DNA of 64,000 nt, from assembly GCA_964352215.1 (NCBI GenBank), contig CAYGRE010000002.1:22353-86352 (forward strand). The letters run 5' to 3'. Both the position numbers and the translations under genes were made by a program. Below the pieces are notes generated by a model that saw nothing but the letters and a program-made list of their open reading frames with translations, had not been told where the DNA came from and searched no databases. Position 1 is the first letter of the stretch, and each line of letters opens with the position of its first letter. Shown here piece by piece: positions 3,001 through 45,032 of the stretch. This stretch comes from an uncultured Bacteroidia bacterium (GTDB lineage: Bacteria; Bacteroidota; Bacteroidia; J057; JADKCL01).

Positions 3001-5022
3001 AATGTCACTTATACCGACACCCTGCAGTTCCTTGAGACTGACACCGTAGTCGTTGGCTTCCTGAATACTTATGCCGGTTATCAGACTGTCAATTTTGATG
3101 GTTATGTTGCCCTGGCCAGTGATCAGAATACCACCAATGATACGGTCAACCCACTGGGTAGTTCACTCTTCATCCCAATAGTTCCGGTTGGTTTTGCAAA
3201 CAGCGGCTGTGGTTCTGATACCTCAGTCCTGGAAGGTTTAGCCTGGCCCAATGCCAGCTATGCCTGGTATGCCAATGCGACCGATACGACTCCAATCGCG
3301 ATCGGTCCTACCTTTACCATTCCTTCCCTTGCGGCTCAGTCGACCTACTTCCTCGGATATGAATCCGGTGCTTCTGACTCAATGACCACTGGCTTCCCCG
3401 GTGGCAATGCTCAAGCTGGTAATATGTTTGACATGACCGCCAACCAGACGACCACCATCAACGGGATCGCTGGCAACTTCAACCCAGGCACCAACACGGT
3501 TGATGTCTGGTACCGGACTGATTCCTATACCAATAGCCCTAACAGTCCTACTGGTTGGATTCAGGTGGTATCTGGCGCAACGGTTGTAAGTCCTGGTAAT
3601 GGTCAGGGAACCCTGATCCCCGGTACTTACAACATCACCATACCTGCGGGTGCCACTTATGGCTTCTTCGTCATCTGTCAAACTGGTGGAGTAGCCTATA
3701 CCAATGGTGTTACTGTTGGTAACCTTTGGGCAACCGATGGTCGTTTGACCATATTCGAAGGTATTGGCCGCGGTGTTCCCGCATTTACCGGTGGCACCTT
3801 CTCACCACGTAACTTCAACGGTACTTTCTACTATGGAAGTGATCCTTGTAGCAACCTGCGTACACCTGTTACCGGTTTCTCTGGAACCGCTGCATCCGTG
3901 AACCTTGGCCCTGACGTGAGCACTTGTGATACCCTCGCATTGCTGGATGCTGGCAATCCTGCTGGAACTTCCAGCTATTCATGGAGCACCAGTGATACCA
4001 CTCAGACCACAGTTGCCCTGGCAACCGGTTCCTACAATGTCACCATTGTGGATACAGTTGGCTGTTCTGCTTCAGATACGGTCAATGTGACACTGAATCC
4101 TCCTCCAACCATTCCGCTGGGAGCCGATACCACCATCTGCTTGGGTGACTCCATTACCCTGGATGCTGGAAACCCCGGTGGTCAGTACCTCTGGTCCAAT
4201 TCCGCAACTACGCAGACCATCACCGTTCCCGGTGGTACCTTCTCTGTAACGGTTGTTGATTCCAATACCTGCCAGAACAGTACAACCATTATTGTCAGCG
4301 AATCCGGTGTTGCTATTGATCTTGGTGCCGATACCACGCTTTGTAATGGTGCTTCTCTGAATCTGGATGCAGGTGCAGGTGGCGTCAGCTATACATGGTT
4401 GCCTAATGGTGATACTACCCAGGCCATCAATGTAAACACTGCCAATACGTACAGCGTCTCCGCGACTGACTCCATTGGTTGTGTTACCACGGACGATATC
4501 ATCGTCAATACCGATGTCACCCCAACCGCAGCCTTTACCTTCCTCGTGACTGGTGCTGGTCTCACTTATGACTTCACTTACACTGGAACCGCAGGTACCA
4601 ACTACGTTTGGGACTTCGGTGACGGTAGCCCGGCCGGCTCTGGTGCCACCCCATCTCATACCTATGCGATGGACGGCAACTATACCGTTTGCCTGACTGC
4701 GGACAATGATTGTGGTCTGGACTCTATCTGCCAGGTACTGAGTGTTGTTGCCATCGACCTCGGATTGCAAGCTGAAACTGTCAGCCTCTTCCCGAATCCG
4801 AACAATGGTCACTTCACCTTGTCCTTCACCAGCTATGACATCACCGACGTTGACGTCGAGATCTTTAGCATGAGAGGCAAGTCTGTCTGGAGAAAAGGCT
4901 ATGAATCTGTCAATGGAACCGTGGAAGAAGATGTTACCCTGAACGATGTCGCCAGCGGCATCTACTTCGTGCGTTTCTCTTCAGCCAATCAGGTTATCAC
5001 ACGCAAGCTAACTGTAGAGTAA
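1..5022 (+). CDS. Large secreted cell-surface protein, truncated at its 5' end by the window edge. It has two tandem parallel beta-helix modules, CARDB/Ig-like domains, a PKD domain and a T9SS type-A C-terminal sorting domain.
   Basis: Frame 1 is open from position 1, and the TTG at 43 is only an ORF-finder start. The ~500-aa module with NNTIDSC(R/H)(I/V)(E/R)VA ... NGYYG(V/I)RVQGDLNNHQ occurs twice (pectate-lyase-like beta-helix). The PKD signature is YVWDFGDGS ... HTY ... GNYTVCLTA. The C-terminus LFPNPNNGHFTLSF ... GIYFVRF ... KLTVE is typical of a Por secretion tail. No N-terminal signal peptide is visible because the N-terminus lies outside the window. Confidence 0.8.
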   Translation, partial: FAQLAVCGVDSHVVLNVLPATYTERVFVNNIPGAADTATVTLDGADTSLVTVTNNNLATFQFDNGSWVTVKNINIQNTAASNGYGVMFRNQSDNNTIDSCRIEVATGTTSLLSPVCWSSSETSPAGSGTNGEFNTVSNNHLVNGYYGVRVQGDLNNHQDGNRVIGNTFEDTYYYCVYAQYQDSLDIMNNVCDWTGSNINADGMYILDSEGIWAMGNDISDAPDYGLYISDGNFDLPPTRRIRVINNFISTSTDRALYFDDVNNVDVYHNTMYGTYGFYYDDVDSMNVYNNIIVGSTLYAVYSLDAFTVQPSVRINYNDYWGISTTALAYYGGTTWPNLAAWQAAVPPWNQNSVEGNPDFANGLVDMHVLGPLVNDIGDNTLGVTVDIDGDARPLPPSINPDLGADEFFLPPLDAGITALDAPNSPLTPGLQNVEVTIRNFGTNTLTSATIDWEVNGTPQTGFAWTGSLPVGASQSNVNIGQYNFALGTTDLKFWTTGPNGGVDGDNSNDTLFASGCTGLSGTYTVGSGQTYPDLRAAFDDIEQCGVAAAVILDVIPGTYTGSLNLVPFPGASSVNTVTVDGGDTSLVLLTHSGIAEPTIHMQDVDWVTFKNMTIENLATSNAYAVQFSDSADHNTIDSCHVRVAASTSSLFSPICWSNTRTSPAASGWNGNYNTISNNVIENGYYGIRVQGDLNNHQSLNRIVNNEFVTPYLYNIYAQYQDSLEIIGNKAATTTNVGGDGFYLLDLENYIIEENDLSDMADWAMYIADGNFDLTPTRRGRIVNNFISSTSDYGLYIDDVNETDIFHNTCYGTRGIYTNDIIDVDIRNNIFVGTQYAFYSLDNFGTLSNCVIDYNVYFKDGAPNLAYGGGVNYVDLPSWQGAFAAYNGASVEGDPVFVNGSTDMHAIGSAANDAGDNSVGVTIDIDGDARPQSPSTTVDIGADEYTPLLNDATLVELIEPNSSQCGDSSTAVSVSITNLGQAPMTNLPITVNVSGDITQTFNVTYTDTLQFLETDTVVVGFLNTYAGYQTVNFDGYVALASDQNTTNDTVNPLGSSLFIPIVPVGFANSGCGSDTSVLEGLAWPNASYAWYANATDTTPIAIGPTFTIPSLAAQSTYFLGYESGASDSMTTGFPGGNAQAGNMFDMTANQTTTINGIAGNFNPGTNTVDVWYRTDSYTNSPNSPTGWIQVVSGATVVSPGNGQGTLIPGTYNITIPAGATYGFFVICQTGGVAYTNGVTVGNLWATDGRLTIFEGIGRGVPAFTGGTFSPRNFNGTFYYGSDPCSNLRTPVTGFSGTAASVNLGPDVSTCDTLALLDAGNPAGTSSYSWSTSDTTQTTVALATGSYNVTIVDTVGCSASDTVNVTLNPPPTIPLGADTTICLGDSITLDAGNPGGQYLWSNSATTQTITVPGGTFSVTVVDSNTCQNSTTIIVSESGVAIDLGADTTLCNGASLNLDAGAGGVSYTWLPNGDTTQAINVNTANTYSVSATDSIGCVTTDDIIVNTDVTPTAAFTFLVTGAGLTYDFTYTGTAGTNYVWDFGDGSPAGSGATPSHTYAMDGNYTVCLTADNDCGLDSICQVLSVVAIDLGLQAETVSLFPNPNNGHFTLSFTSYDITDVDVEIFSMRGKSVWRKGYESVNGTVEEDVTLNDVASGIYFVRFSSANQVITRKLTVE

Positions 5023-29857: not shown

Positions 29858-30643
29858 ATGCAAGAACTTTTCGACTTATCCATCGCCCCTGAAAATCTGT
29901 TTCCCACCATTCTGCTGACTTTTGTCGCAGTCTACTGGGTGATTTTCATTGTCGGATTGCTGGACTTCAGCTTTCTGGACTTCGATCTGGACAAAGACCT
30001 GGGTGTCGAAGTAGATTTTGATGGAAGCGTCGGAGCCCATGTGGACGGTGACCTCGGCGCAGGTGTCGGAGCCTATGTCGACGGCGACCTCGGCGCAAGC
30101 GTCGGAGGCGACGTGGATGGAGATGCCGACCTCGGCAAAGATGTCTCCTCCCACGGGAAAAACATCTCAGGCCCCGGCAAAGATGTCGGTATTGGCACCA
30201 AAATCCTTTGGTTCCTCAACCTGGGTGATGTCCCCTTCATGGCCTTTATGACCTTCTTCGCCCTCTTCTTCTGGGCTGGCTGTATATTGGGGCACCATTA
30301 TCTGAGCAAGGACAGCCTCCTGCTTTCGATCCTGGTCACCCTTGGCAGCATCGTCATAGCCGCATTGCTTACCAAAGCCATCACCCAACCTTTCCGCAAG
30401 TTTTTCCGGTCCCTGAACCAGGCCGAGAAACCACTGGTCCTCACCGGCCAGATTTGCACCATGGAAACAGGAGCCGCCGGGGATCGTCTGGGCCAGGCCT
30501 ATGTCAGCCTGGAAGACAAACATCTGCTGATCAATGTAAAATCCGATAGTGGAGACCGCATTGACAAAGGGGTACAGTGTCTTATCCTCGCGAAAAGCGA
30601 CGACGGTGACTATTACTTTATACAACCATTTGACTTAGAATAA
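29858..30643 (+). CDS. YqiJ/NfeD-like membrane protein: 3 transmembrane helices, an acidic Asp/Gly-rich repeat loop and a C-terminal NfeD-type OB-fold. It is the first gene of the flotillin cluster.
   Basis: The start was set at the ATG at 29858 (MQELFDL...), which is preceded by TATTTTTG at 29829-36. The TM helices are ILLTFVAVYWVIFIVGLL, FMAFMTFFALFFWAGCILG and LLLSILVTLGSIVIAALL. The C-terminal beta-rich segment is LVLTGQICTMETGAAGDRLGQAYVSLEDKHLLINVKSD ... CLILAKSDDGDYYFIQP. It sits immediately upstream of a flotillin gene, like E. coli yqiJ-yqiK and B. subtilis nfeD-floT. Confidence 0.6.
   Translation: MQELFDLSIAPENLFPTILLTFVAVYWVIFIVGLLDFSFLDFDLDKDLGVEVDFDGSVGAHVDGDLGAGVGAYVDGDLGASVGGDVDGDADLGKDVSSHGKNISGPGKDVGIGTKILWFLNLGDVPFMAFMTFFALFFWAGCILGHHYLSKDSLLLSILVTLGSIVIAALLTKAITQPFRKFFRSLNQAEKPLVLTGQICTMETGAAGDRLGQAYVSLEDKHLLINVKSDSGDRIDKGVQCLILAKSDDGDYYFIQPFDLE
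30029..30136. repeat. 36-bp tandem repeat (3 copies) inside the yqiJ-like CDS, encoding (V)G(A)xVDGDLGA.
   Basis: The copies are gtcggagcccatgtggacggtgacctcggcgcaggt, gtcggagcctatgtcgacggcgacctcggcgcaagc and a degenerate third. The unit is in frame (36 = 12 codons). Confidence 0.8.
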
Positions 30644-30910: not shown

Positions 30911-33091
30911 ATGCTCAACTCACAACTATTCATTGGAGCGGTGTTTGACAATGTGATCACCTTCGTGATCATCGGCATCGCAGTCGCTATTGTCCTTTCT
31001 CTGGCCCTTGTACTCTCCTGGTACAAGAAAGTCCCTCAAGGAAAGGCCCTGGTCCGAACCGGAATCGGTGGGATCAAGATATCCTTCAATGGCATGATCG
31101 TCATCCCGGTTGCCCACAAGATGGAGATGATGGACATCTCTCTTAAGAAAGTAGAGATTGGCCGTACTGGCAAGGACGGTCTGATCTGTAAAGACAATAT
31201 GCGGGCCGATATCAAGGTGGCCTTTTTCGTCCGGGTCAATCCGGAAAAAGAAGCAGTTGGAAGGGTGGCTCAGACCATCGGGGTATCCAGAGGCTCGGCG
31301 GAAGGAACGCTGACCCAACTGTTTGAAGCAAAATTCTCCGAAGCACTCAAGTCTGTCGGTAAACGCTTCAACTTTGTGGAGCTCTATGACAACCGGGAAT
31401 CCTTTCGGGAGGAGATCATCAATATGATTGGCACCAACCTCAACGGCTATATTCTGGACGATGCCGCCATTGACTACCTGGAGCAAACCCCGATTGAATT
31501 CCTTCAGGATGACAATATCCTTGATTCCGAAGGTATCAAGAAGATCACCGACCTCACCGCGATCCAGCACATTGCTGCCAACAAGATCCGCAATGAAGAG
31601 AAGAAGGTCATCACCCAGCAGGATGTTGAAGCCCAGGAAGCCATCCTGGAGCTGAACCGCCAACTCGTGGAAAAGGAGCAAATCCAGCAGCGGGAAATTG
31701 CTTCCATCACGGCCCGGGAAGAAGCCGAAACCAAGAAGATCCAGGCTGAAGAATTACTGCGCTCTGAGCAAGCCCGCATCCAGACCGAAGAAGAGGTCGC
31801 TATCGCGGAGCAAAACAAGCAGCGTCAGGTCATTGTGGCTCAAAAGTCCAAAGAGAAGACCGAAGCAGTGGAAACCGAGCGCGTCACCAAAGAGCGTGAA
31901 CTGGAGATCAATGAACGGGAGCGGGTGGTCACCCTGGCCCAGATCGAGAAAGAGAAGTCGGTCGAGGAAGAAAAGAAGAATATCCAGGAAGTGATCCGGG
32001 AACGGGTCATTGTGGAAAAGGCCACCGTGGTGGAAGAAGAGAAGATTAAAGACACCCGTGAATTTGCCACCGCTGACCGTTCCAAAAAAGTTGCACTGAC
32101 CAAGGCGGAAGAAACTTCCGGCCAGGAGAAGATCATGGCTGTGATCAAAGCAGAAGCAGATAAGGAAGCGGCTCAGATTGAAGCCCTGCGGAAGATCATC
32201 GAAGCGGAGGCCGCCCTGAAAGCATCTGAGCTGGATGCGGAAGCCATCAAGAGACGTGCTGAGGCCCGGGCCGCCGAAGAAGCTGCCGTCGGTGTCTCTG
32301 AAGCACAGGTCATCGAAGCCAAAGCTATTGCCAGCCAGCGCAAAGGTGAAGCCGATGCCAAAATCATTGAACTTCGGGCCAGTGCCGAAGCCAAAGAGAT
32401 CGAACTGAAAGCGGCGGCCAATGAGCAGGCCGGACTCAAAGAAGCCAACGTGCTTGAACAAACTGCCCTGGCCGCAGCCAAAGGCAAGACCGCCAATGCG
32501 GAGGCGACCGAGCGCGAAGGCCTGGCCGAAGCCCTTACCATCGAGAGCAAGCTGATTGCGGAAGCAAAAGGTATCGAGAAGAAAGCCGATGCGATGAAGA
32601 AGCTCGACGGAGTGGGCAAAGACCACGAAGAGTTCCGCCTCAGGTTGCAGAAAGACAAAGAAGTCGAGTTGGCTCAGATCGGGATCATGGCCGAGATCGC
32701 AGGTGCCCAGGCAACTGTGCTCAGCGAGGCCCTCAAGTCCGCCAATATCGACATCGTAGGTGGCGAAGCCGTATTCTTTGACAAACTGATGAATGCAGTG
32801 ACCCAGGCCAAGACCATTGATGGGCTGGTCAACAAGAGCAGCGTCCTCAGCGATCTGAAGAACAACCTACTCGACGGGGAGGATGGCAATGTGATCGACA
32901 AGGTCAAAGGACTGGTCCAGCAAATTGGGCTGAAGTCCGATGACATCAAGAACCTGAGTATTGCAGCCCTGCTGTTGAAAATGAACGATGCAACCGACGA
33001 CAACAGTGTCAAAGGGGTGATCAACCGCCTCATGAACGCTGCGTGGCAGACAGGCATCGCCGACAAATCAGCAGGTTTGCTCGGACTGTAA
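30911..33091 (+). CDS. Flotillin-family protein (SPFH/band 7 domain, YqiK/FloT-like) with a long Ala/Glu/Lys-rich coiled-coil C-terminus.
   Basis: An N-terminal TM helix (VITFVIIGIAVAIVLSLALVLSWY) is followed by the SPFH domain (KKVPQGKALVRTGIGG ... RADIKVAFFVRV), then about 400 aa of EA-repeat coiled coil (KAEADKEAAQIEALRKIIEAEA ...). Confidence 0.85.
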   Translation: MLNSQLFIGAVFDNVITFVIIGIAVAIVLSLALVLSWYKKVPQGKALVRTGIGGIKISFNGMIVIPVAHKMEMMDISLKKVEIGRTGKDGLICKDNMRADIKVAFFVRVNPEKEAVGRVAQTIGVSRGSAEGTLTQLFEAKFSEALKSVGKRFNFVELYDNRESFREEIINMIGTNLNGYILDDAAIDYLEQTPIEFLQDDNILDSEGIKKITDLTAIQHIAANKIRNEEKKVITQQDVEAQEAILELNRQLVEKEQIQQREIASITAREEAETKKIQAEELLRSEQARIQTEEEVAIAEQNKQRQVIVAQKSKEKTEAVETERVTKERELEINERERVVTLAQIEKEKSVEEEKKNIQEVIRERVIVEKATVVEEEKIKDTREFATADRSKKVALTKAEETSGQEKIMAVIKAEADKEAAQIEALRKIIEAEAALKASELDAEAIKRRAEARAAEEAAVGVSEAQVIEAKAIASQRKGEADAKIIELRASAEAKEIELKAAANEQAGLKEANVLEQTALAAAKGKTANAEATEREGLAEALTIESKLIAEAKGIEKKADAMKKLDGVGKDHEEFRLRLQKDKEVELAQIGIMAEIAGAQATVLSEALKSANIDIVGGEAVFFDKLMNAVTQAKTIDGLVNKSSVLSDLKNNLLDGEDGNVIDKVKGLVQQIGLKSDDIKNLSIAALLLKMNDATDDNSVKGVINRLMNAAWQTGIADKSAGLLGL

Positions 33092-33112: not shown

Positions 33113-36100
33113 GTGGAAAATACCAATAACATACAACTCGAAGGCGGGGCCTACGAGATCATCCGCAACCGCCTCCTGACCCACGGCACCGAGCTGCGCC
33201 AAAGACTTGGCCAGCTCGATGAAGCCCGCCGGGAGGTGTTCGGATCGATCTCCACCGAACTTCTGGCCACCGACCGGATATCAACTGAAAACAATTGCAT
33301 CGCCAGAGACATCGTCTCTATCGGAGGCAAGTCCATCTTCGGATACAATGTCCAGTTGGGCTTGCGGACCGAGATGCATCTCAAAGATGTCTTTGCAGTA
33401 TTTCACTACAAGGACCAACGCTACCACGAGGACAGCCTGGACTTCATCCGGCATCCACGGTTTGAAGAGGATTTTACCAACCTCTACAAATATTACCGTC
33501 ATACCGTCTTCTCGAAGTTCGCGGTCATCGGTCCACACCTCTATATGGTGTTTCAGATCGGTAAAAGCGTCACCGACATCAAAGCCTTTAAGTTCCTCAT
33601 CACCCCGGAGCAGACCCTCCAATTTGTTGACAGTCGCTCCGAGGCAGAGGTCAGGTATCCCGAACAGCACGAATTCAAATGGGTACGTGCCCACCGGGAC
33701 ATGCACCGGACAGGTCAATTCCCCCATGTATCCATCATGGACAAGGTGTTCGTGGAGACCATGGGCGGAAGCCTGACCATCAAGGTCGAGGACAATACCG
33801 ACTCCGGGCTGGGAATTTACACCGAGGACGTCGACCATAAGGAGCAGTCTCTGGACGACGCGGAAATGTTCTATGCAGATCTGGGCAATATCCTTGTTCT
33901 GAAAATCCGCCCCTTTCAGGAAAAGGATTTTCGCTACATCGCCTACAACGAAAAGATGCAGGAAGCCCGGAGGATTGATACATTGGCGCACAGCTGTGTT
34001 CTCCTCCCCGATAGCCACGGCATCATTTTCGCCAATGGCTATTACCTCCAGACCGGTGAGTACAAGATTTTCCAGACCGGCCTCACCGATCTGCATTTCG
34101 AAAAGCGGATTTCAAGCCCCAATGGTGAAGATTACCTCTATGTATTCTTCAACCAGGACACAGGCTCCTACGTCCTGCTCAGTTACAACCTGATCGCTCA
34201 GAAGGTCGAAGCCCCCATCATCTGCAATGGATTTGCCCTCTTTGAAAATGGCGAGTTGACCTATTTCCGGGCCGAAGTCGAACCGACCAAGCACCACGCC
34301 ATCCAGATCTGGCAGACCCCTTATGTGGGCCTCAATTTCCGACTTCCGGTTTCTGAGGACAACAAGCTGTATAAGATTGGCAACAAGGACATCGTCCGGG
34401 CCATGGCCGAGTGTACCGAGATCCTCACCATTCTCAACAAAGAGGACACCTACGGTGGGCTCTACATCGACCTGGTCAAGCTGAGCGGCAATGTGCTGGA
34501 CAGCTATTACTGGATCGCAGACAAAGACACCTTCCAACTCAACGAACCGCTGAAAGAAATCAGGGAGTCAGCGGAGGGGGCCATTGAAGAGTTTGAGAAA
34601 GTAACCAGGGTACGGAGACACACCCGCGACGAAATGGAACGGGTCAGCCAGGCCGCCGACCACCTCGTCCGCGAGATCAAGCGCTCCATCTTCGAGAATG
34701 TCAACCAATTCGTAAAGATGCTGGCCGACCTCCGCAAGATGCGGGGCGAAGTCATCTCCCTGAAAGAATTGCGGTATGTCGATCTGGAACTCGTGGACCG
34801 CCTGGCAACGGACCTGTCCGAAGAAACCGAACGCCTGTCCCGCAAATGCGTGGAATTCCTACTGCGCGAGGGTGCACTCGCCCCCTACCAGGACAAAGTC
34901 ACCGAAGTCCACGGCGAGATCGACAGCGTCAAAACCGCCGCCGAAGCGGCCCAGGTAGAATTGAAGATCGAGGAGGTCGCCTCTGAACTGGAACTGCTGA
35001 TCGAGATCGTCTCCAATCTCAAGATTGACGATGCCACTCAGACGGCCCGCATCATCGACAGCATCTCGAATATATTCGCCGAGCTCAACCAGGTCCGGGC
35101 CGCCTTGCGCCGCCACAAAAAAGAACTGATGAGCACCGAGGCGGTGGCCGAGTTCAGCGCCCAGCTCAAACTGGTCGGCCAGGCGGTGGTCAACTACCTC
35201 GATGTCTCCGACACCCCTCAGAAATGCGATGAGTACGTCACCAAACTCATGGTACAGGTCGAGGAACTTGAAGGAAAGTTCTCCGAGTACGATGAATTCA
35301 TTGACCAACTCACCGAGAAGCGGGAAGAGATCTACAATGCTTTCGAAGCCCGGAAATTGTCTCTGACCGAAGCGCGTAACAAGCGGGCCTCGGCCCTCTT
35401 CAAGAGCGCAGAACGCATCCTCTCCGGCATCCGCAACCGGGTGGCCCAGTTCGGGGAAGTCACTGAGATCAATGGCTATTTCGCCTCCGACCTGATGATC
35501 GACAAGGTCCGGGACATCGTTGAGAAACTGATGGAGCTGGATGACAATGTCAAGTCCGAAGACCTGCAATCCCGGCTCAAGACCATCCGCGAGGATGCGG
35601 TGCGCCAACTCAGGGACCGCAAAGACCTCTTTGTCGATGGCAAGAATATCATCCAGTTGGGCAAGCATAAGTTTTCAGTCAACGTCCAACCGCTGGACCT
35701 GACCATTGTCCCCAAGGACGACGACCAATACTTCCACCTGAGTGGCACCAATTTTTTTGAGCGCATCCGCAACGAAGACTTCGAAGCCACCCGACCGATC
35801 TGGAAGCAAGAGCTCGTTTCCGAAAGCGAGGAAGTCTACCGGGCCGAATTTCTGGCTTATGCATTCTTCAAAGAAATGGTCGGGGACAGGAAGGGCCTTG
35901 ATGCCTTTGCAAATGCCCCCGAAGCGGAGCAATTGGAGCAACTCCATACCTATATGGGGCCCCGCTACCAGGAGGGCTATGCCAAGGGAGTCCACGACCA
36001 GGATGCCTACGCAATCCTGAACGCATTGCTGACCCTCCATTCCGACATCGGACTGCAACGGTACGCCCCTTCCGTACGGGCCTGTGCCATGCTCTGGTGG

Positions 36101-37996
36101 GAAACCTTCGTTAGCAAATCCGACAAAGCCCTTCTGCAACACCGGCTCAAAGGTGCGGGTTCAGTCCTGAAAGTATTTCCGGATTCCAAAGAATTTGGCG
36201 ACCTGGAAGCAGACATTTCCGAGCTCATCCATCAATTTCAGGAAGCAACCGGCCTCTTTGCCGCGGTATCCCAGTGCCTGGCTGCCGAGTATTTATTTGC
36301 CGAATTGACGCAAAACGACCGCTTTCTCGCTTCCGGCCCGGCCCAGCAGTTGCACCGGGATTTGAACGCATTTCTGAGCCGCAAGTCCTCGGTCAAGACC
36401 TTCCAGGAATCGCTCCGGCAATTGGAAGAGGTACCCGAAGACCGCTATTCGCTGATCTGCAGCTGGCTGACCGCTTATGTAGAAATGGAAGGCAAACCGG
36501 AGGCAGTGGATTATGTCCAGGAAGCCGCAGTGATTCAGTTCCTCGGCGATCAGGACCATTTCCGCACCGTTCCCGGCTCCGTCCATACTGAACTGAAAGG
36601 CCTGCGGGGAGACCATCCTGCCCTGGGAGAAAAAGGCCATTACCGTCTCAACTACAACCACTTCATGGCCCGGCTGGGCAATTACCACCGGGAGACCGTT
36701 CCCAAATTTCACCAATACCACCAGCTCAAGCACAAACTCACCGAAGAGTTCCGGTCTGAGCTCCGCCTCAGTGAGTTCAAACCAAGGGTATTGTCCAGTT
36801 TCGTCCGCAACAAACTGATCGACGAGGTCTATTTGCCCCTGTTCGGCAACAACCTGGCCAAGCAGATCGGCACGGTCGGCGACGACAAGCGCACCGACCG
36901 GATGGGGATGTTGCTCCTCATCTCGCCGCCGGGATACGGTAAGACGACCCTGATGGAATACATCGCCAACCGTCTCGGGCTGATCTTCATGAAGATCAAT
37001 GGCCCCGCGATCGGACACTCGGTGACCGCTCTCGATCCGGAAGAAGCCCCCAATGCTGCTGCCCGCGAGGAACTGCAAAAGCTGAACCTGGCATTGGAGA
37101 TGGGAGACAATATCATGCTCTACATCGACGATATTCAGCACTGTCACCCTGAGTTCCTGCAAAAATTCATCTCACTCTGTGATGCGCAGCGCAAGATCGA
37201 AGGGGTGTACAAGGGCCGTTCCCAGACCTATGACCTGCGCGGCAAACGCGTCTGTGTGGTCATGGCGGGCAATCCTTATACCGAATCCGGCACCAAGTTT
37301 CAGGTACCGGACATGCTGGCCAACCGCGCCGATACCTACAACCTGGGGGATATCATTGGGGAAACGGATACCTACTTCAAATTGTCTCTGGTCGAGAACT
37401 GTCTCACCAGCAACAATGCCTTGCAAAAGATAGCCCAGCGCTCCCACAAGGATGTTTATACCTTCCTGAAAATCGCAGAGACTGACAAACAGGAGGGGCT
37501 GGATTTCGAAGGGAATTATACCCCGGAAGAAGTTTCAGAAATCGTGGCAGTCTTGAAAAAGTTGATGGTGGTGCGGGATGTAATCCTGACCGTCAACCAG
37601 GAATACATCCGCAGTGCTGGGATGGGTGATGAGTTCCGTACGGAACCGGCTTTCAAACTCCAGGGTTCTTACCGGGACATGAACAAGCTGGCAGAGAAGC
37701 TTATCCCCATCATGAACGACCGGGAGTTGAAAGCCATGCTGCTCACCCACTACGAAAGCGAATCTCAAACCCTCACCTCTGGTGCGGAGGCGAATTTGCT
37801 CAAGTTCAAGCAAATGGTGGGTTGGATGACCGAGGAGGAGCAAGCCCGCTGGAACGATATCAAGGCGACTTTTATGAAGAAGCAGAGCCTTCTGGGCATC
37901 GATGCCGGCGACAAATTCGGCCAGGTGATTGCCCAATTGGGGAGTCTGGTGGATGGGATTGAAGGGATGCGAAAAGCAGTGGAAGGACAGAAGTAA
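33113..37996 (+). CDS. Giant (1627 aa) protein with an N-terminal domain of unknown fold, a central roughly 600-aa coiled coil and a C-terminal AAA_5 (MoxR/dynein-related) ATPase domain. It is probably co-operonic with the flotillin gene 22 bp upstream.
   Basis: Walker A is LLLISPPGYGKTTLMEY, Walker B is IMLYIDDIQHCHPEFL, sensor-1 is VCVVMAGNPY, and the Arg finger region is VPDMLANRADTYNL. This order matches AAA_5. Residues roughly 480-1100 have a heptad-rich helical composition. No match to a characterised family could be recalled. Confidence 0.6.
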   Translation: MENTNNIQLEGGAYEIIRNRLLTHGTELRQRLGQLDEARREVFGSISTELLATDRISTENNCIARDIVSIGGKSIFGYNVQLGLRTEMHLKDVFAVFHYKDQRYHEDSLDFIRHPRFEEDFTNLYKYYRHTVFSKFAVIGPHLYMVFQIGKSVTDIKAFKFLITPEQTLQFVDSRSEAEVRYPEQHEFKWVRAHRDMHRTGQFPHVSIMDKVFVETMGGSLTIKVEDNTDSGLGIYTEDVDHKEQSLDDAEMFYADLGNILVLKIRPFQEKDFRYIAYNEKMQEARRIDTLAHSCVLLPDSHGIIFANGYYLQTGEYKIFQTGLTDLHFEKRISSPNGEDYLYVFFNQDTGSYVLLSYNLIAQKVEAPIICNGFALFENGELTYFRAEVEPTKHHAIQIWQTPYVGLNFRLPVSEDNKLYKIGNKDIVRAMAECTEILTILNKEDTYGGLYIDLVKLSGNVLDSYYWIADKDTFQLNEPLKEIRESAEGAIEEFEKVTRVRRHTRDEMERVSQAADHLVREIKRSIFENVNQFVKMLADLRKMRGEVISLKELRYVDLELVDRLATDLSEETERLSRKCVEFLLREGALAPYQDKVTEVHGEIDSVKTAAEAAQVELKIEEVASELELLIEIVSNLKIDDATQTARIIDSISNIFAELNQVRAALRRHKKELMSTEAVAEFSAQLKLVGQAVVNYLDVSDTPQKCDEYVTKLMVQVEELEGKFSEYDEFIDQLTEKREEIYNAFEARKLSLTEARNKRASALFKSAERILSGIRNRVAQFGEVTEINGYFASDLMIDKVRDIVEKLMELDDNVKSEDLQSRLKTIREDAVRQLRDRKDLFVDGKNIIQLGKHKFSVNVQPLDLTIVPKDDDQYFHLSGTNFFERIRNEDFEATRPIWKQELVSESEEVYRAEFLAYAFFKEMVGDRKGLDAFANAPEAEQLEQLHTYMGPRYQEGYAKGVHDQDAYAILNALLTLHSDIGLQRYAPSVRACAMLWWETFVSKSDKALLQHRLKGAGSVLKVFPDSKEFGDLEADISELIHQFQEATGLFAAVSQCLAAEYLFAELTQNDRFLASGPAQQLHRDLNAFLSRKSSVKTFQESLRQLEEVPEDRYSLICSWLTAYVEMEGKPEAVDYVQEAAVIQFLGDQDHFRTVPGSVHTELKGLRGDHPALGEKGHYRLNYNHFMARLGNYHRETVPKFHQYHQLKHKLTEEFRSELRLSEFKPRVLSSFVRNKLIDEVYLPLFGNNLAKQIGTVGDDKRTDRMGMLLLISPPGYGKTTLMEYIANRLGLIFMKINGPAIGHSVTALDPEEAPNAAAREELQKLNLALEMGDNIMLYIDDIQHCHPEFLQKFISLCDAQRKIEGVYKGRSQTYDLRGKRVCVVMAGNPYTESGTKFQVPDMLANRADTYNLGDIIGETDTYFKLSLVENCLTSNNALQKIAQRSHKDVYTFLKIAETDKQEGLDFEGNYTPEEVSEIVAVLKKLMVVRDVILTVNQEYIRSAGMGDEFRTEPAFKLQGSYRDMNKLAEKLIPIMNDRELKAMLLTHYESESQTLTSGAEANLLKFKQMVGWMTEEEQARWNDIKATFMKKQSLLGIDAGDKFGQVIAQLGSLVDGIEGMRKAVEGQK

Positions 37997-38074: not shown

Positions 38075-38809
38075 ATGTCCGATTCTTCATATTTGATCAG
38101 TGACCCGGTTGTATTGCACAACGCCCTGATTGATGCCCATTCCAAGGCGGATGGGTTAAGGTACAGAGCCTTGTGCGACCAGAATTCAAACTTGATTCAC
38201 AAGCACTTCCCAGCCTGGATGGTGATTCCCTACGCCATCAAGAACGATGAAAACGCGGTGAATGTCTATTCGGCTGCGATTGTGAATGTCGCGGTCCACT
38301 TTGCCATGAAGGGCGATACGCGCCTCATGGACCTGATCAACGGTATCGGAGACGATCCTTCTGTAAAATGGGACGAGGCATTCCACCAGTTCGAGGACCT
38401 GATGAAGAAGTTTGACTTCGCCGCTGCCCGTGACTTGTTGCTCGAGGTGGCATCGGAAATGCGGGAGCTGTCCGGGCCGGCCATTGACTACCGTATACCC
38501 TACGTCCACGAACGCCTGACCTGGTTGTTTTTTCTTTCCGGGGACATGGAATCGGCCGAATTGTACGGACGGGCGGCGCTGATGGGATTCAGAAAGACGA
38601 AAAATACCGAAGGGATATTGACAATCACCCGGCGCCTCGCAGACATCTTCAAAGCAGCGGGCGAATGGGAAAAGTCCCGGCAATGGATCATCCGATTTAC
38701 CAATATCCTACTGCAAAATGGCCGTCAGGAGAATGCAGAGGCAGTTCGCAGGTTACATGGGATTGAGCCCCTGGGAGAAGTGATTCCCCTTTCTGCTTCC
38801 GAAGATTGA
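38075..38809 (+). CDS. Hypothetical protein, possibly helical-repeat or TPR-like, probably the last gene of the flotillin/ATPase cluster.
   Basis: It is on the same strand, 79 bp after the giant ATPase. It has no signal peptide and no recognisable motif. Confidence 0.4.
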   Translation: MSDSSYLISDPVVLHNALIDAHSKADGLRYRALCDQNSNLIHKHFPAWMVIPYAIKNDENAVNVYSAAIVNVAVHFAMKGDTRLMDLINGIGDDPSVKWDEAFHQFEDLMKKFDFAAARDLLLEVASEMRELSGPAIDYRIPYVHERLTWLFFLSGDMESAELYGRAALMGFRKTKNTEGILTITRRLADIFKAAGEWEKSRQWIIRFTNILLQNGRQENAEAVRRLHGIEPLGEVIPLSASED

Positions 38810-38882
38810 CACAAAGAATACATCTTGATTTGCGTGGGAAAATTTCCGATATTCGTAGGTAAGCCAATAAAATTTCTGAGCC

Positions 38883-39098
38883 ATGTTATACGCAGACAAT
38901 AAAGAGAATAAGCCCAAGAAAACCCCTGCTGGTCGCGTCAACACTCCTGAGGACGCCCAAGGGCCTTCATTTGCTCCCCCGGAACTCTTCAAAGACGACG
39001 AAGACAAAGAGGATGAAATGGAGGATCATGGTGGACTTTCCGCTACGGAAAAAGAGAAGAAGAAAGCACTCGAGAAGAAGGAAAGAAAGGGACTTTAA
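38883..39098 (+). CDS. Small, highly charged hypothetical protein (71 aa).
   Basis: This is an ORF only. Its composition is KEKKKALEKKERK and it contains the motif GPSFAPPELF seen in neighbouring leader-like ORFs. Its coding status is uncertain. Confidence 0.25.
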   Translation: MLYADNKENKPKKTPAGRVNTPEDAQGPSFAPPELFKDDEDKEDEMEDHGGLSATEKEKKKALEKKERKGL

Positions 39099-39152
39099 GT
39101 CTCAACCCTGTCTTTTGTGCCCCAATTTGTCGAGTAAATAACCCCATCCATC

Positions 39153-39986
39153 ATGTTTGAGCCAACGCATCAAAACACGAATCAGAGTTCGCACGAAAAC
39201 GAAGGCAATGTCCTTCAGGCCAAGTCTGCGTCTCCCCCGGCATTTTCAATTGCCGCATCACCAATGCAGCAGACGTCTGATGCTTCTGGTGGTTGCTCGC
39301 TTTGTGAACCTATGCAATTGACTGCGCTGAGCAGTTTTCCTGAAGGCACGAGCGAAGAGCAGATGATGGGCGGTGGCAATAACAAGGATGGGCAACCCGT
39401 ACAACGCAAAGCAGACAACAGTGCTGGTGGCAGTGGCGGCGATTCGCCTATGCAACTCACCGCTGCTGGTTCAGGTCCACTTCAGCTTAGAGGTGGCGCG
39501 ACCGTGGGAACCCTTTGCGTCAAAACCAACGTAGTAAATGAAGGTTTGACAGCCGGGCATGCCTGGCTCTCCTATACACCTGTCAGTGGTGGAGAAGAAA
39601 CTTATGGCACCTGGGGTAACCGCACCCCAATCGGACTGCACAGAAATATCGAAGTAGGTATGGGGGGCAAAGCAACCCGTTGCACCGAGATCGATGCTAC
39701 GGACAAAGCCAACCTGGACTCCTTCGCCTCCTCCAACAACGATTGGGGTTTGTTCAACAACTGCTCTTCCTTCGCAGCACGCGGCTGGCTGGCCGTAACC
39801 GGTGAACACCTCAACTACACTTCCGCTGGCATCCCTAATCCGAGCAAGCTCGGTGAAAGCATCATCGCGGCTGGTGGAACCCTCTCACCCTCTGGTACGG
39901 GAGGCTCAAGTGACAGCTCAGGAAGCTCTTATGGAAGCAGCTCTGCCAACAGCTCTGTAACCAGCTCCTACAATTCCTCCATGTAA
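39153..39986 (+). CDS. Putative polymorphic-toxin or eCIS-type effector-like protein: a leader region without signal peptide carrying QRK/PMQL motifs, a central putative His ... Cys hydrolase-like domain, and a Ser/Gly-rich C-terminal tail.
   Basis: There is no signal peptide. The N-terminal 110 aa are low-complexity, with SPPAFSIAASPMQQ, EPMQLTA, PVQRKADNSAGGSGG and SPMQLTAAG, resembling the xxQRK leader regions found N-terminal to DUF4157/eCIS cargo. The central GHAWLSYTP ... TYGTWGN ... NNCSSFAARGW gives a conserved His ... Cys order reminiscent of permuted papain-like (LRAT/NlpC) folds. The tail is SGTGGSSDSSGSSYGSSSANSS. Confidence 0.4.
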   Translation: MFEPTHQNTNQSSHENEGNVLQAKSASPPAFSIAASPMQQTSDASGGCSLCEPMQLTALSSFPEGTSEEQMMGGGNNKDGQPVQRKADNSAGGSGGDSPMQLTAAGSGPLQLRGGATVGTLCVKTNVVNEGLTAGHAWLSYTPVSGGEETYGTWGNRTPIGLHRNIEVGMGGKATRCTEIDATDKANLDSFASSNNDWGLFNNCSSFAARGWLAVTGEHLNYTSAGIPNPSKLGESIIAAGGTLSPSGTGGSSDSSGSSYGSSSANSSVTSSYNSSM

Positions 39987-41023: not shown

Positions 41024-41226
41024 TACCCACTTGCTCATCATCGGTAATCCCTTCCGATTAGGTCCTTGGCTATGAGCTCTCTTCCTACCATCGCATTGGT
41101 CTGGGAAAATAAATCATTCATCGAATCTGCGGGCCTGGCCTGAGGGGAAAGTAGTACTTATGTACTGAACAATGAGTAATTCATAATCTTCCAACAGAAT
41201 ACCGAAACAAGCTTTAGAATACCAGA

Positions 41227-41254
41227 AGGCCGCCGAAAGGCGGTCTCTTTTTTT
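41227..41254 (+). terminator. Isolated Rho-independent terminator that may end a small RNA or a long 3' UTR.
   Basis: The stem-loop ggccgcc-gaaa-ggcggtc is followed by TCTTTTTTT. It lies about 200 bp downstream of the nearest plus-strand CDS. Confidence 0.5.
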
Positions 41255-41805
41255 GGGGTTGACCTCGCATTTGAGAAGCGGATTTTGGTGCAACTGCCAA
41301 TCAGGAAGGGAGGCAGACATTTGAGAAAGCTGAAAGGAGTGCGGGCTTTGGCTGCATCTGATACAAGCGGGATGCTGGTCGAGCCACCCCCAATCACCAC
41401 AAAATAGACGCTGGTTAAGCGCAATCGGAGATTGGGGAACTTGACTAGAGAAACAGCAGAAACCAGGAAAGGGTTTCTTCTGTGGAATTACCTGACGATT
41501 TCTGAGGGATTTGATTTTTGCGGGGAAATGATGAAGGTCCGGATGCTCAAACCTGAGCGTCCGGACCTTCAAGGTTCGAGCATCCGTACCTCCAACCTTG
41601 ACAGTTAGGAGGGAACAGGTATTCTACTTGAGACCTGAATATCCGAGCCTGCCGAGGGCCGACCTATTAGGGTCCGGCCCCTCAGATTTGACACTCTTGA
41701 CCCTCATAGGTCGAAGCTTGAGCCCGGCAAATTTGAGGGTAGGGAGGGGAAAGGGTTTATGCTGCCAACACGGGCCTGCCTGGCAAATGACCATCTTCCT
41801 TTATG

Positions 41806-41930
41806 GTCGGGACCCTCTCCCCGAGCCGGTTTCGACCCGGAAAAGAGACGGTCGGGACCCTCTCTCTGTGACGGTTTGGACCCGGAAAAGAGAGGGTCCG
41901 GACCCTCTCTCCTTGAGGCTTGTTCGCCGC
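41806..41930. repeat. 45-bp tandem repeat (about 2.6 units), each unit containing the perfect palindrome gagagggtccggaccctctc.
   Basis: The units are ggtcgggaccctctccccgagccggtttcgacccggaaaagagac, ggtcgggaccctctctctgtgacggtttggacccggaaaagagag and a partial third. Confidence 0.8.
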
Positions 41931-41978
41931 ATCAATGACGGTCCCAACCGTAAAGGTTTGACACTCTTGCTTGTCAAT

Positions 41979-42022
41979 GGGAGACACTTCCGACCCTCAT
42001 TGGAGACACTCCCGACCCTCAT
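41979..42022. repeat. 22-bp direct repeat x2 (gagacacttccgaccctcattg / gagacactcccgaccctcattg).
   Basis: Two adjacent copies differ at one position. Confidence 0.8.
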
Positions 42023-42469
42023 TGATTCGGCATGTTTTTCTCAAATTGCTTTCTAATTCGCTTGCAATTACTGGATGCTGTTGGATACTTGATACCCTGC
42101 AAGGAGTTTGCTGCCACATGAGTGTAATCTCGGTGGTCTTGCTACTACTATGACCGAGCAATGTTTGAATAAATCAAAGATCGGTTCCTGCCCCAAACAA
42201 ATAGGTAGCAAAAGCGGGCTGCCATTCCATAAAATAGCTTCTTAGATCCGGCAGGATCGTCTTACTCAGAAGAGTATAGCGATCACCAGCAAAGCGACCT
42301 GAGAACGGTCTTAACACTTATCAAAAGTAACTTGAGACACCAGCTATAGACCTTCTCGAGTAACAGAGCTGGTAACTAAGAAGCACTGAATCTGATACCA
42401 AGGCAGGTATCTTAAAGTGGTCGAAAAAGGGGATAAATATAGTAATGCTGGAATCAAAAATCTTGAACC

Positions 42470-44274: not shown

Positions 44275-44436
44275 GCATGGTCCAGCCTTGGATCATGTCT
44301 AAAAGTAATTGGGTTTGGCTCGTGTGAAGGTCCAGACCAGTCCGGCAGAACATCATCAACAGAAACACAAATATGCCATAGGAGCCCTGGAAGAGGGTTT
44401 TGGTTCATAATCCGCGTGTACAGGGGTGACAGCACG

Positions 44437-45032
44437 CGGGTCCAGACCTGCGGGTTCACGGGTTCAGACCCTCGGATTCGAGGGGCCAGACCTGTGGATT
44501 CGCGGGTTCAGACCCGTAGATTCGAGGGTCAAGACCCGTAGATTCGCGGGTTCAAACCCGTAGATTCGCGGGTCCAAACCCGTAGATTCGAGGGTTCAAA
44601 CCCGTAGATTCGAGGGTCCAGACCCGTAGATTCACGGGTTCAAACCCTCGGATTCGCGGGTTCATACCTGTGGACTCAAGGGTTCAGACCCGTAGATTCG
44701 CGGGTCCAGACCCTCGGATTCGCGGGTCCAAACCCTCGGATTCGCGGGTTCAGACCCGTAGATTCGCGGGTTCAAACCCGTAGATTCACGGGTTCAAACC
44801 CTCGGATTCACGGGTCCAGACCCGTAGATTCACGGGTTCAAACCCTCGGATTCGCGGGTCCAGACCCGTAGATTCACGGGTCCAAACCCTCGGATTCACG
44901 GGTCCAAACCCTCGGATTCACGGGTCCAGACCCGTAGATTCACGGGTCCAAACCCTCGGATTCACGGGTCAAGACCCGTAGATTCGCAGGTCCAGACCTG
45001 CGGCTTCGCAGGTTCAAACCCGTAGATTTCGG
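44437..45032. repeat. Minisatellite of about 27 tandem copies of a 22-bp unit (consensus cgggtYcaRacccgtagattcg) between convergent genes. Each unit is self-complementary (gacccg-N8-cgggtc).
   Basis: The units are directly adjacent, with no spacers. Variation is confined to about 4 positions (gcgggt/acgggt/agggt; tt/tc; cag/caa; ccgtag/cctcgg). There are stop codons in all frames. Confidence 0.9.

Follow-up and report, generated by a model that had tools for sequence, protein, structure and literature searches.

Genes of the locus and their conserved order

We analyzed a 64,000-nucleotide stretch (the window) of contig CAYGRE010000002.1 from an uncultured Bacteroidia bacterium (assembly GCA_964352215.1), which carries on its + strand a large gene with the NCBI family name 'DNA repair ATPase'. 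The gene occupies positions 33113..37996 as a single uninterrupted open reading frame (ORF) with a GTG start and 1627 codons, the extent already assigned to it in a preliminary description of this DNA, and it begins 21 bp after the stop codon of a flotillin gene on the same strand. It is clearly a real gene; an identical copy of its product is present in public data (P0001; also L081, a contig from the identical organism), and the 120 relatives listed were 55-73% identical to the window protein across 99-100% of its length, despite belonging to differing phyla. Its product is probably the soluble ATPase subunit of a conserved membrane module of three genes; the other two specify a YqiJ/NfeD-like protein with three transmembrane (TM) segments and a flotillin-type SPFH protein.

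The first gene of the module lies at 29858..30643 on the + strand, with ATG 29858 as the likely start of an ORF that extends mechanically from 29723, and specifies a YqiJ/YuaF (DUF1449, NfeD-like) protein. Its product was 30% identical (E=3e-31) to a Hymenobacter 'DUF1449 family protein' and contained three hydrophobic segments by Kyte-Doolittle analysis; the match to Pfam YqiJ_N was weak (E=0.074). A 36-bp tandem repeat at 30025-30107 inside this gene encodes a D/G-rich loop (GAHVDGDLGAGVGAYVDGDLGASVGGDVDGD...), which is missing from the Hymenobacter homologue.

The second gene, at 30911..33091 on the + strand, encodes a flotillin-type SPFH protein of 726 amino acids, with a single N-terminal TM segment (approximately residues 4-41 by Kyte-Doolittle analysis), a Band_7 domain, an E/A/K-rich coil and a C-terminal flotillin region. 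The Band_7 match (PF01145, E=7.1e-10) was obtained when only residues 1-260 were scanned, and the full-length protein gave no Pfam match even at E=10. Apparently, the biased composition of the E/A/K-rich coil triggers the HMMER bias filter on the full-length sequence, and such flotillins can therefore escape routine annotation. The protein was, nonetheless, 43% identical across its full length (690 aa) to a Streptomyces 'flotillin family protein'. These two genes bear out the flotillin/NfeD partners that the preliminary description had named for the ATPase.

This arrangement has been described before. Ravi et al. (2024, mSystems, PMC11237479; preprint 2020) described the same operon, composed of CesT/Tir-PspA, flotillin, 3-TM YqiJ/YuaF and AAA+ ATPase genes, and noted a wider distribution for abbreviated operons, which consist only of the flotillin and YqiJ/YuaF genes, at times joined by the ATPase gene. 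Their supplementary table lists a 'Betapropeller+Coiled-coil+AAA-ATPase' protein after flotillin in the Dokdonia donghaensis neighbourhood ANH61663.1, and the authors inferred a role in sub-membrane assembly and dynamics. The window resembles the published operon in having a flotillin, an adjacent 3-TM YqiJ/YuaF protein and an AAA+ ATPase, but differs in being without the CesT/Tir-PspA dyad and the LexA-like regulator; it thus has the abbreviated form, YqiJ-like, flotillin and ATPase. The flavobacterial loci that we fetched showed the full arrangement. We infer from architecture and context, rather than from sequence, that the window protein is of the same kind as the Dokdonia protein. The family is already catalogued (DUF3686, DUF7902) and the operon has been described computationally, neither of which the preliminary description recognised, and the window holds a typical member of the abbreviated form.

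The order of genes was compared in 80 loci from Bacteroidota, Planctomycetota, Verrucomicrobiota, Desulfobacterota, Kiritimatiellota, Omnitrophota and Clostridia, with counts of order resting on the 62 informative loci that had at least 3.5 kb of upstream sequence. A flotillin gene stood upstream on the same strand in 59 of these 62, and the full order YqiJ-like, flotillin, ATPase was present in 56, as in the window. Across all 80 loci the conserved neighbour families were limited to flotillin and the YqiJ-like protein, with PspA, CesT-like and LexA-like genes found in a subset: a PspA/IM30-like gene lay upstream of the trio in 19/80 loci and a CesT/Tir-like gene in 17/80, the inspected examples being flavobacterial, and a LexA-family regulator (helix-turn-helix plus S24 peptidase-like) was divergently upstream in 17 loci. 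Examples of this upstream extension lie at 4289-5008 of locus L045, 3931-4326 of L059 and 2305-3066 of L019. Some loci also had variable genes between flotillin and the ATPase, which by eye from their translations were IS200-like, DUF559-like or coded for small membrane proteins. The window genes downstream of the ATPase were not conserved with the module.

Annotated plasmids gave similar pictures. On the Pseudomonas fluorescens plasmid pQBR103 the order was PspA/IM30, rhomboid, DUF2491, DUF350, DUF1190, glutathionylspermidine-synthase-like, hypothetical, SPFH and 'DNA repair ATPase', the hypothetical gene occupying the YqiJ-like position and being equated with it by position alone; this plasmid joins the trio to a yjf-type PspA/polyamine cluster. 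A Hymenobacter plasmid carried 'chaperone Tir', PspA/IM30, DUF1449, flotillin and ATPase genes, with a LexA-family gene divergently upstream. Streptomyces and Deinococcus plasmids had a small gene, a flotillin gene and the ATPase gene; the flotillin is annotated as such in the Streptomyces plasmid, and its Deinococcus counterpart, annotated as hypothetical, was assigned by size and position. Considering this linkage, we think it very likely that the ATPase and the flotillin/YqiJ module are functional partners. Because its gene almost always stands directly after a flotillin gene and a YqiJ/NfeD-type gene, the most likely place for the ATPase to act is the cell membrane, not DNA.

Domain organization of the ATPase

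The N-terminal domain, which had been thought unknown, is catalogued as Pfam DUF3686 (PF12458). The match spans residues 27-466 (33191..34510, + strand) and all of profile positions 1-448 of 448, with E=5e-181 and 602.5 bits against a cut-off of 25. As noted before from the translation, this part of the protein is rich in aromatic residues, F, W and Y making up 12.4% of the first 476 residues compared with 5.2% of the helical part. Residues 1-500 were modelled with AlphaFold2 from 50 homologues (predicted local distance difference test, pLDDT, 89; predicted template modelling score, pTM, 0.87); the model showed an N-terminal helix (7-43), a beta-rich core (49-401) with strands in approximately seven four-stranded groups, as in a propeller, and closing helices (418-499). 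A Foldseek search with this model returned propellers as all of its top matches (best E=2e-7). The domain is thus confidently modelled as a beta-propeller clasped by a helical bundle, in agreement with one of the folds guessed for it earlier. The helical bundle also matched Vta1 and the calpain-7 MIT domain; these matches were non-specific, and no MIT domain was demonstrated.

The remainder of the protein was modelled as residues 470-1627 (pLDDT 82). It begins with a segmented, heptad-like helical region at 34541..35626 (residues 477-838, + strand), for which DSSP assignment of the model gave ten helices of 15-58 residues each with short loops between them. Within this region residues 588-671 (34874-35125) matched DUF7902 (PF25472, E=1.6e-27, 96 bits against a cut-off of 26). 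A small conserved beta domain with five predicted strands follows at 35648..35764 (residues 846-884, + strand), its invariant residues including G850, F854, N857, Q859, L863, H875, G878 and T879. Next is a predicted globular all-alpha domain at 35840..36544 (residues 910-1144, + strand), with helices of 10-24 residues and pLDDT of approximately 90, which is the least conserved part of the protein (conservation 0.24-0.64). Between this domain and the ATPase core lie short strands (1150-1180) and one long helix.

The preliminary description had placed a coiled coil of approximately 600 residues at 480-1100 and likened the protein to a molecular ruler or tether. The heptad-like character holds for the first part of that span, a crude heptad score being raised (z=2-4) only at approximately 440-830, but the beta domain and the all-alpha domain occupy the rest, and the model contains no continuous coiled coil of that length. 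A long structural tether, which would space the flotillin scaffold while the ATPase only regulated its attachment, would fit the heptad-like helical region of approximately 360 residues lying between two globular ends. However, the helices are broken every 15-58 residues or so and have pLDDT values of 70-90, which suggests folded-back bundles, residues 840-1220 are globular, and the strongest conservation is in the ATPase core, which points to an enzymatic rather than a spacer function. We therefore consider a tether distinctly unlikely.

No TM-like segment was found in the 1627 residues by a Kyte-Doolittle scan with a 19-residue window (maximum mean 1.54), nor did the scan find a hydrophobic N-terminus, in line with the earlier statement that the protein has no signal peptide or TM helix. 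Because the gene lies in a conserved operon with flotillin and YqiJ/NfeD-type genes, recruitment of the protein by these partners is a reasonable expectation.

The C-terminal part is certainly an AAA+ ATPase. The module extends over 36812..37702 (residues approximately 1234-1530, + strand), as delimited by Pfam AAA and AAA_5, Foldseek and invariant motifs, and Foldseek gave a probability of 1.00 to many AAA+ structures with an alpha/beta core and a helical lid. The four motifs quoted in the preliminary description are all present, and alignments of 20, 50 and 25 homologues from several phyla showed little or no variation in them. Walker A, SPPGYGKTT, is at residues 1271-1279 (36923-36949, + strand); it is invariant and opens with Ser (SPPGYGKT, 1271-1278) where the classical GPPGxGKT has its first Gly. 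Walker B (37112-37138, + strand) contains YIDDIQ at 1337-1342 (MLYIDD at 1334-1340), and its invariant acidic pair has Asp in second place, i.e., DD rather than DE. DnaA has a similar IDDIQ box, a likeness that we treat as a lead only. VMAGNPY at 1383-1389 contains the candidate sensor-1 residue N1387 (37250-37279, + strand), which stands at the end of the predicted beta-4 strand, with an NP motif after the sensor-1 strand; ANRADTY at 1403-1409 contains the candidate Arg finger R1405 (37316-37339, + strand), which stands before beta-5. Furthermore, QGSYR at 1517-1521 (37661-37675, + strand) is a candidate sensor-2 S-x-R motif, its R1521 lying at the start of a lid helix. These three residues are all invariant, and their sensor and finger roles are assigned from position alone.

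In the model the core opens with beta-1 at 1266-1270 and is followed by the lid and more C-terminal helices. A beta-hairpin was predicted at 1361-1374, ahead of the sensor-1 strand beta-4, and a long helix at 1471-1502, ahead of the candidate sensor 2; a conserved 18-residue segment between beta-2 and alpha-2 was not predicted as a hairpin. The majority identity of the core across phyla was 80-93%, the strongest conservation in the protein. Many homologues (in L006-L009, L011, L013 and similar loci), e.g., ones from Planctomycetota, Desulfobacterota and Acidobacteriota, have a C-terminal extension of approximately 150-250 residues, which is absent from the window protein.

The order of the motifs had been taken as typical of the dynein/MoxR/midasin clade. 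Membership of the dynein/MoxR clade is plausible, but our results are not decisive. In favor of it, Foldseek ranked dynein heavy chains (E from 7e-6 to 1e-4) highest for the ATPase domain, together with NorQ and CbbQ of the MoxR type, which had E of approximately 1e-4 and TM-scores to target of 0.41-0.56. However, spastin, Lon, ClpB, Vps4, p97 and the proteasomal Rpt subunits came within approximately one order of magnitude. Pfam AAA (PF00004, E=4.8e-7) and AAA_5 (PF07728, E=1.1e-6) both matched at approximately 1267-1390, AAA_5 scoring above its cut-off with 124/139 profile positions covered and AAA being aligned only through Walker B, and 25/25 tested family members matched the two about equally well. 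When a profile of the family's ATPase region was compared with the PDB, matches were confined to the Walker A/beta-2 stretch of p97, NVL and RuvB.

These results also bear on whether the protein might be a strict MoxR-type chaperone, acting in cofactor maturation or insertion like NorQ/NorD and CbbQ/CbbO, with flotillin as a mere scaffold. The likeness to MoxR proteins and dynein consists of the best Foldseek matches, NorQ and CbbQ among them, the AAA_5 match above cut-off over nearly the whole profile, the NP motif and the hairpin predicted before sensor 1. MoxR systems, however, typically encode a VWA-domain partner nearby, and no such partner was present among the neighbour families conserved across the 80 loci or annotated in the five annotated loci. 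The window ATPase further differs in its DD Walker B, in a Walker A/beta-2 region like that of classical AAA proteins, for which the sequence profile favors p97/NVL, and in the equal score of Pfam AAA and the close structural matches outside the clade; and at 1627 residues with large extra domains it is five times the length of MoxR proteins (approximately 300 residues). A MoxR-type chaperone in this strict sense is, therefore, unlikely.

The family name raises a further explanation, namely that the protein serves DNA repair in the manner of SMC/Rad50/SbcC ATPases and uses a long coiled coil to bridge or process DNA. The window protein has full-length matches to both Pfam families of the 'DNA repair ATPase' group, is 55-73% identical to proteins bearing that NCBI name and shares the architecture of the group; what the name says of function found no support here. 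For such a function speak the names themselves ('DNA repair ATPase' in NCBI, 'ATPase involved in DNA repair' in Pfam), weak matches, below threshold, between the helical region and LmuB (E=5e-6) or TrlF (E=1e-3), and the LexA-family gene divergently upstream in 17 loci and on the Hymenobacter plasmid. However, the LmuB and TrlF matches were of the coiled-coil-similarity kind, those to RuvB were below cut-offs and confined to the Walker A region, and the longest helix, of 58 residues, is unlike an SMC-type arm. The N-terminus is a predicted propeller, there is no ABC-type split head or N-terminal P-loop, the sole P-loop being that of the C-terminal AAA+ domain, and the conserved neighbours are membrane proteins, with no nuclease or SbcD-like partner among them. 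A role in DNA repair is thus extremely improbable. Because there is no SMC/Rad50-type head and no nuclease partner, and in view of the gene context, the label is unsupported; most likely it is an artefact that entered the annotation through the coiled-coil-like region and its likeness to SbcC/SMC-type proteins, and as it stands in public databases it is misleading.

Distribution of the family

A scan of one genome per species showed that at least 587 species from many phyla encode a relative, and an exhaustive search with the N-terminal domain returned only 738 clusters at 50% identity. The architecture is uniform, every complete relative having approximately 1600-1900 residues with DUF3686 at the N-terminus. 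The window protein was 54-57% identical to relatives from Planctomycetota, Desulfobacterota and Acidobacteriota compared with 50-52% to flavobacterial ones. Among plasmid records, 13/72,556 carried the family, several of these being chromids or chromosomes; they include pQBR103 and the Streptomyces, Deinococcus and Hymenobacter plasmids. Because similarity does not track taxonomy and copies occur on megaplasmids and chromids, our results suggest that the module has spread horizontally.

Mobility of this kind might point to an anti-phage or other mobile conflict system. The copies on the megaplasmid pQBR103 and on the Streptomyces, Deinococcus and Hymenobacter plasmids, the disagreement of similarity with taxonomy and the mobile-element-type genes (IS200-like and DUF559-like) inside the operon of some loci are consistent with that explanation. 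Against it, no match was found in 50,697 phage records, the genes of the module gave no match above noise to a PADLOC defence-system family, and the module contains no nuclease, toxin or other effector domain. The small number of plasmid records and the fixed architecture and high conservation, unusual for such systems, argue likewise, and we regard a conflict system as very unlikely. Each of the four explanations weighed here (tether, MoxR-type chaperone, DNA repair and conflict system) is less likely than partnership with the flotillin/YqiJ module.

A possible role at the membrane and other features of the window

If the ATPase is a partner of this module, its action might proceed as follows. 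The flotillin/YqiJ complex would recruit the ATPase to the cytoplasmic face of the membrane, with the propeller and its helical bundle as the probable docking module, and the ATPase would oligomerise via its AAA+ domain. ATP would then drive the assembly, disassembly or remodelling of oligomers of flotillin, and of PspA where present, or of client proteins, in the course of envelope maintenance or stress. We advance only tentatively, as one possibility, that the protein carries out ATP-driven remodelling of flotillin and/or PspA polymers or their clients. The narrower proposal, that this propeller-AAA+ protein is a dedicated ATP-driven assembly and disassembly factor of flotillin cages, and of PspA/ESCRT-III-like polymers in lineages with the extended operon, is more doubtful still.

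Two known systems offer functional comparisons by analogy. In HflK/HflC-FtsH and in the prohibitin-m-AAA protease system, an SPFH cage is found with an AAA+ partner. The window module is like HflK/C-FtsH in that an AAA+ machine is tied, genetically or physically, to an SPFH membrane scaffold, and we use this as a working analogy only: FtsH is a membrane-anchored member of the classical AAA clade with a protease, whereas the soluble window protein lacks a protease and contains a propeller and helical stalk, and the two show no homology outside the AAA+ fold. The second comparison is with Vps4 and ESCRT-III. PspA and Vipp1 are members of the ESCRT-III superfamily, and in some lineages the AAA+ ATPase is co-encoded with PspA/IM30, which suggests ATP-dependent remodelling of a membrane-bound polymer. 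The family differs from Vps4 in that no MIT domain is demonstrated, its clade is not clearly classical, and its constant partner is flotillin rather than PspA.

Several observations weigh against a module of this kind or against the mechanism proposed for it. Three of the 62 informative loci had no flotillin or YqiJ-like gene nearby, and sharing an operon does not by itself show that one of the partners is the substrate, or which. Neither PspA nor CesT/Tir genes were found in the window, where tblastn with the flavobacterial proteins gave nothing below E=0.3. Furthermore, an aromatic pore-loop motif after strand beta-2 was not evident on direct reading of the alignment, and a threading mechanism is therefore not assured; the DD Walker B may also give unusual hydrolysis kinetics. 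Finally, we found in the literature no experimental work on any member of the family.

If the dedicated-factor proposal is true, the family would be a bacterial functional counterpart of Vps4, or of FtsH in its complex with HflK/C, and would provide energy-dependent turnover for flotillin microdomains, which to our knowledge has not been demonstrated in bacteria. The family is a candidate for the missing motor that would couple the assembly and turnover of bacterial flotillins and PspA-type proteins to energy. A family that is widespread, extremely conserved, misnamed and unstudied is worth experiment.

Other features of the window lie downstream of the module. A pair of genes on the same strand as the ATPase, at 38075-39986, encodes proteins of 244 residues (weak TPR-like matches) and 277 residues (S/G-rich, no matches), and both recur only in contig L081. 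A stretch of approximately 1.4 kb at about 41024-42469 has no convincing ORF and gave no Rfam or tRNA match; it contains repeated palindromic elements of the GGTCCGGACC type, several inverted repeats and, at 41805-41939, a 45-bp direct repeat present three times. Farther downstream, between ORFs at 44435-45028, lies a tandem array of 27 copies of a 22-bp unit (CGCGGGTCCAGACCCGTAGATT) with 80% matches.

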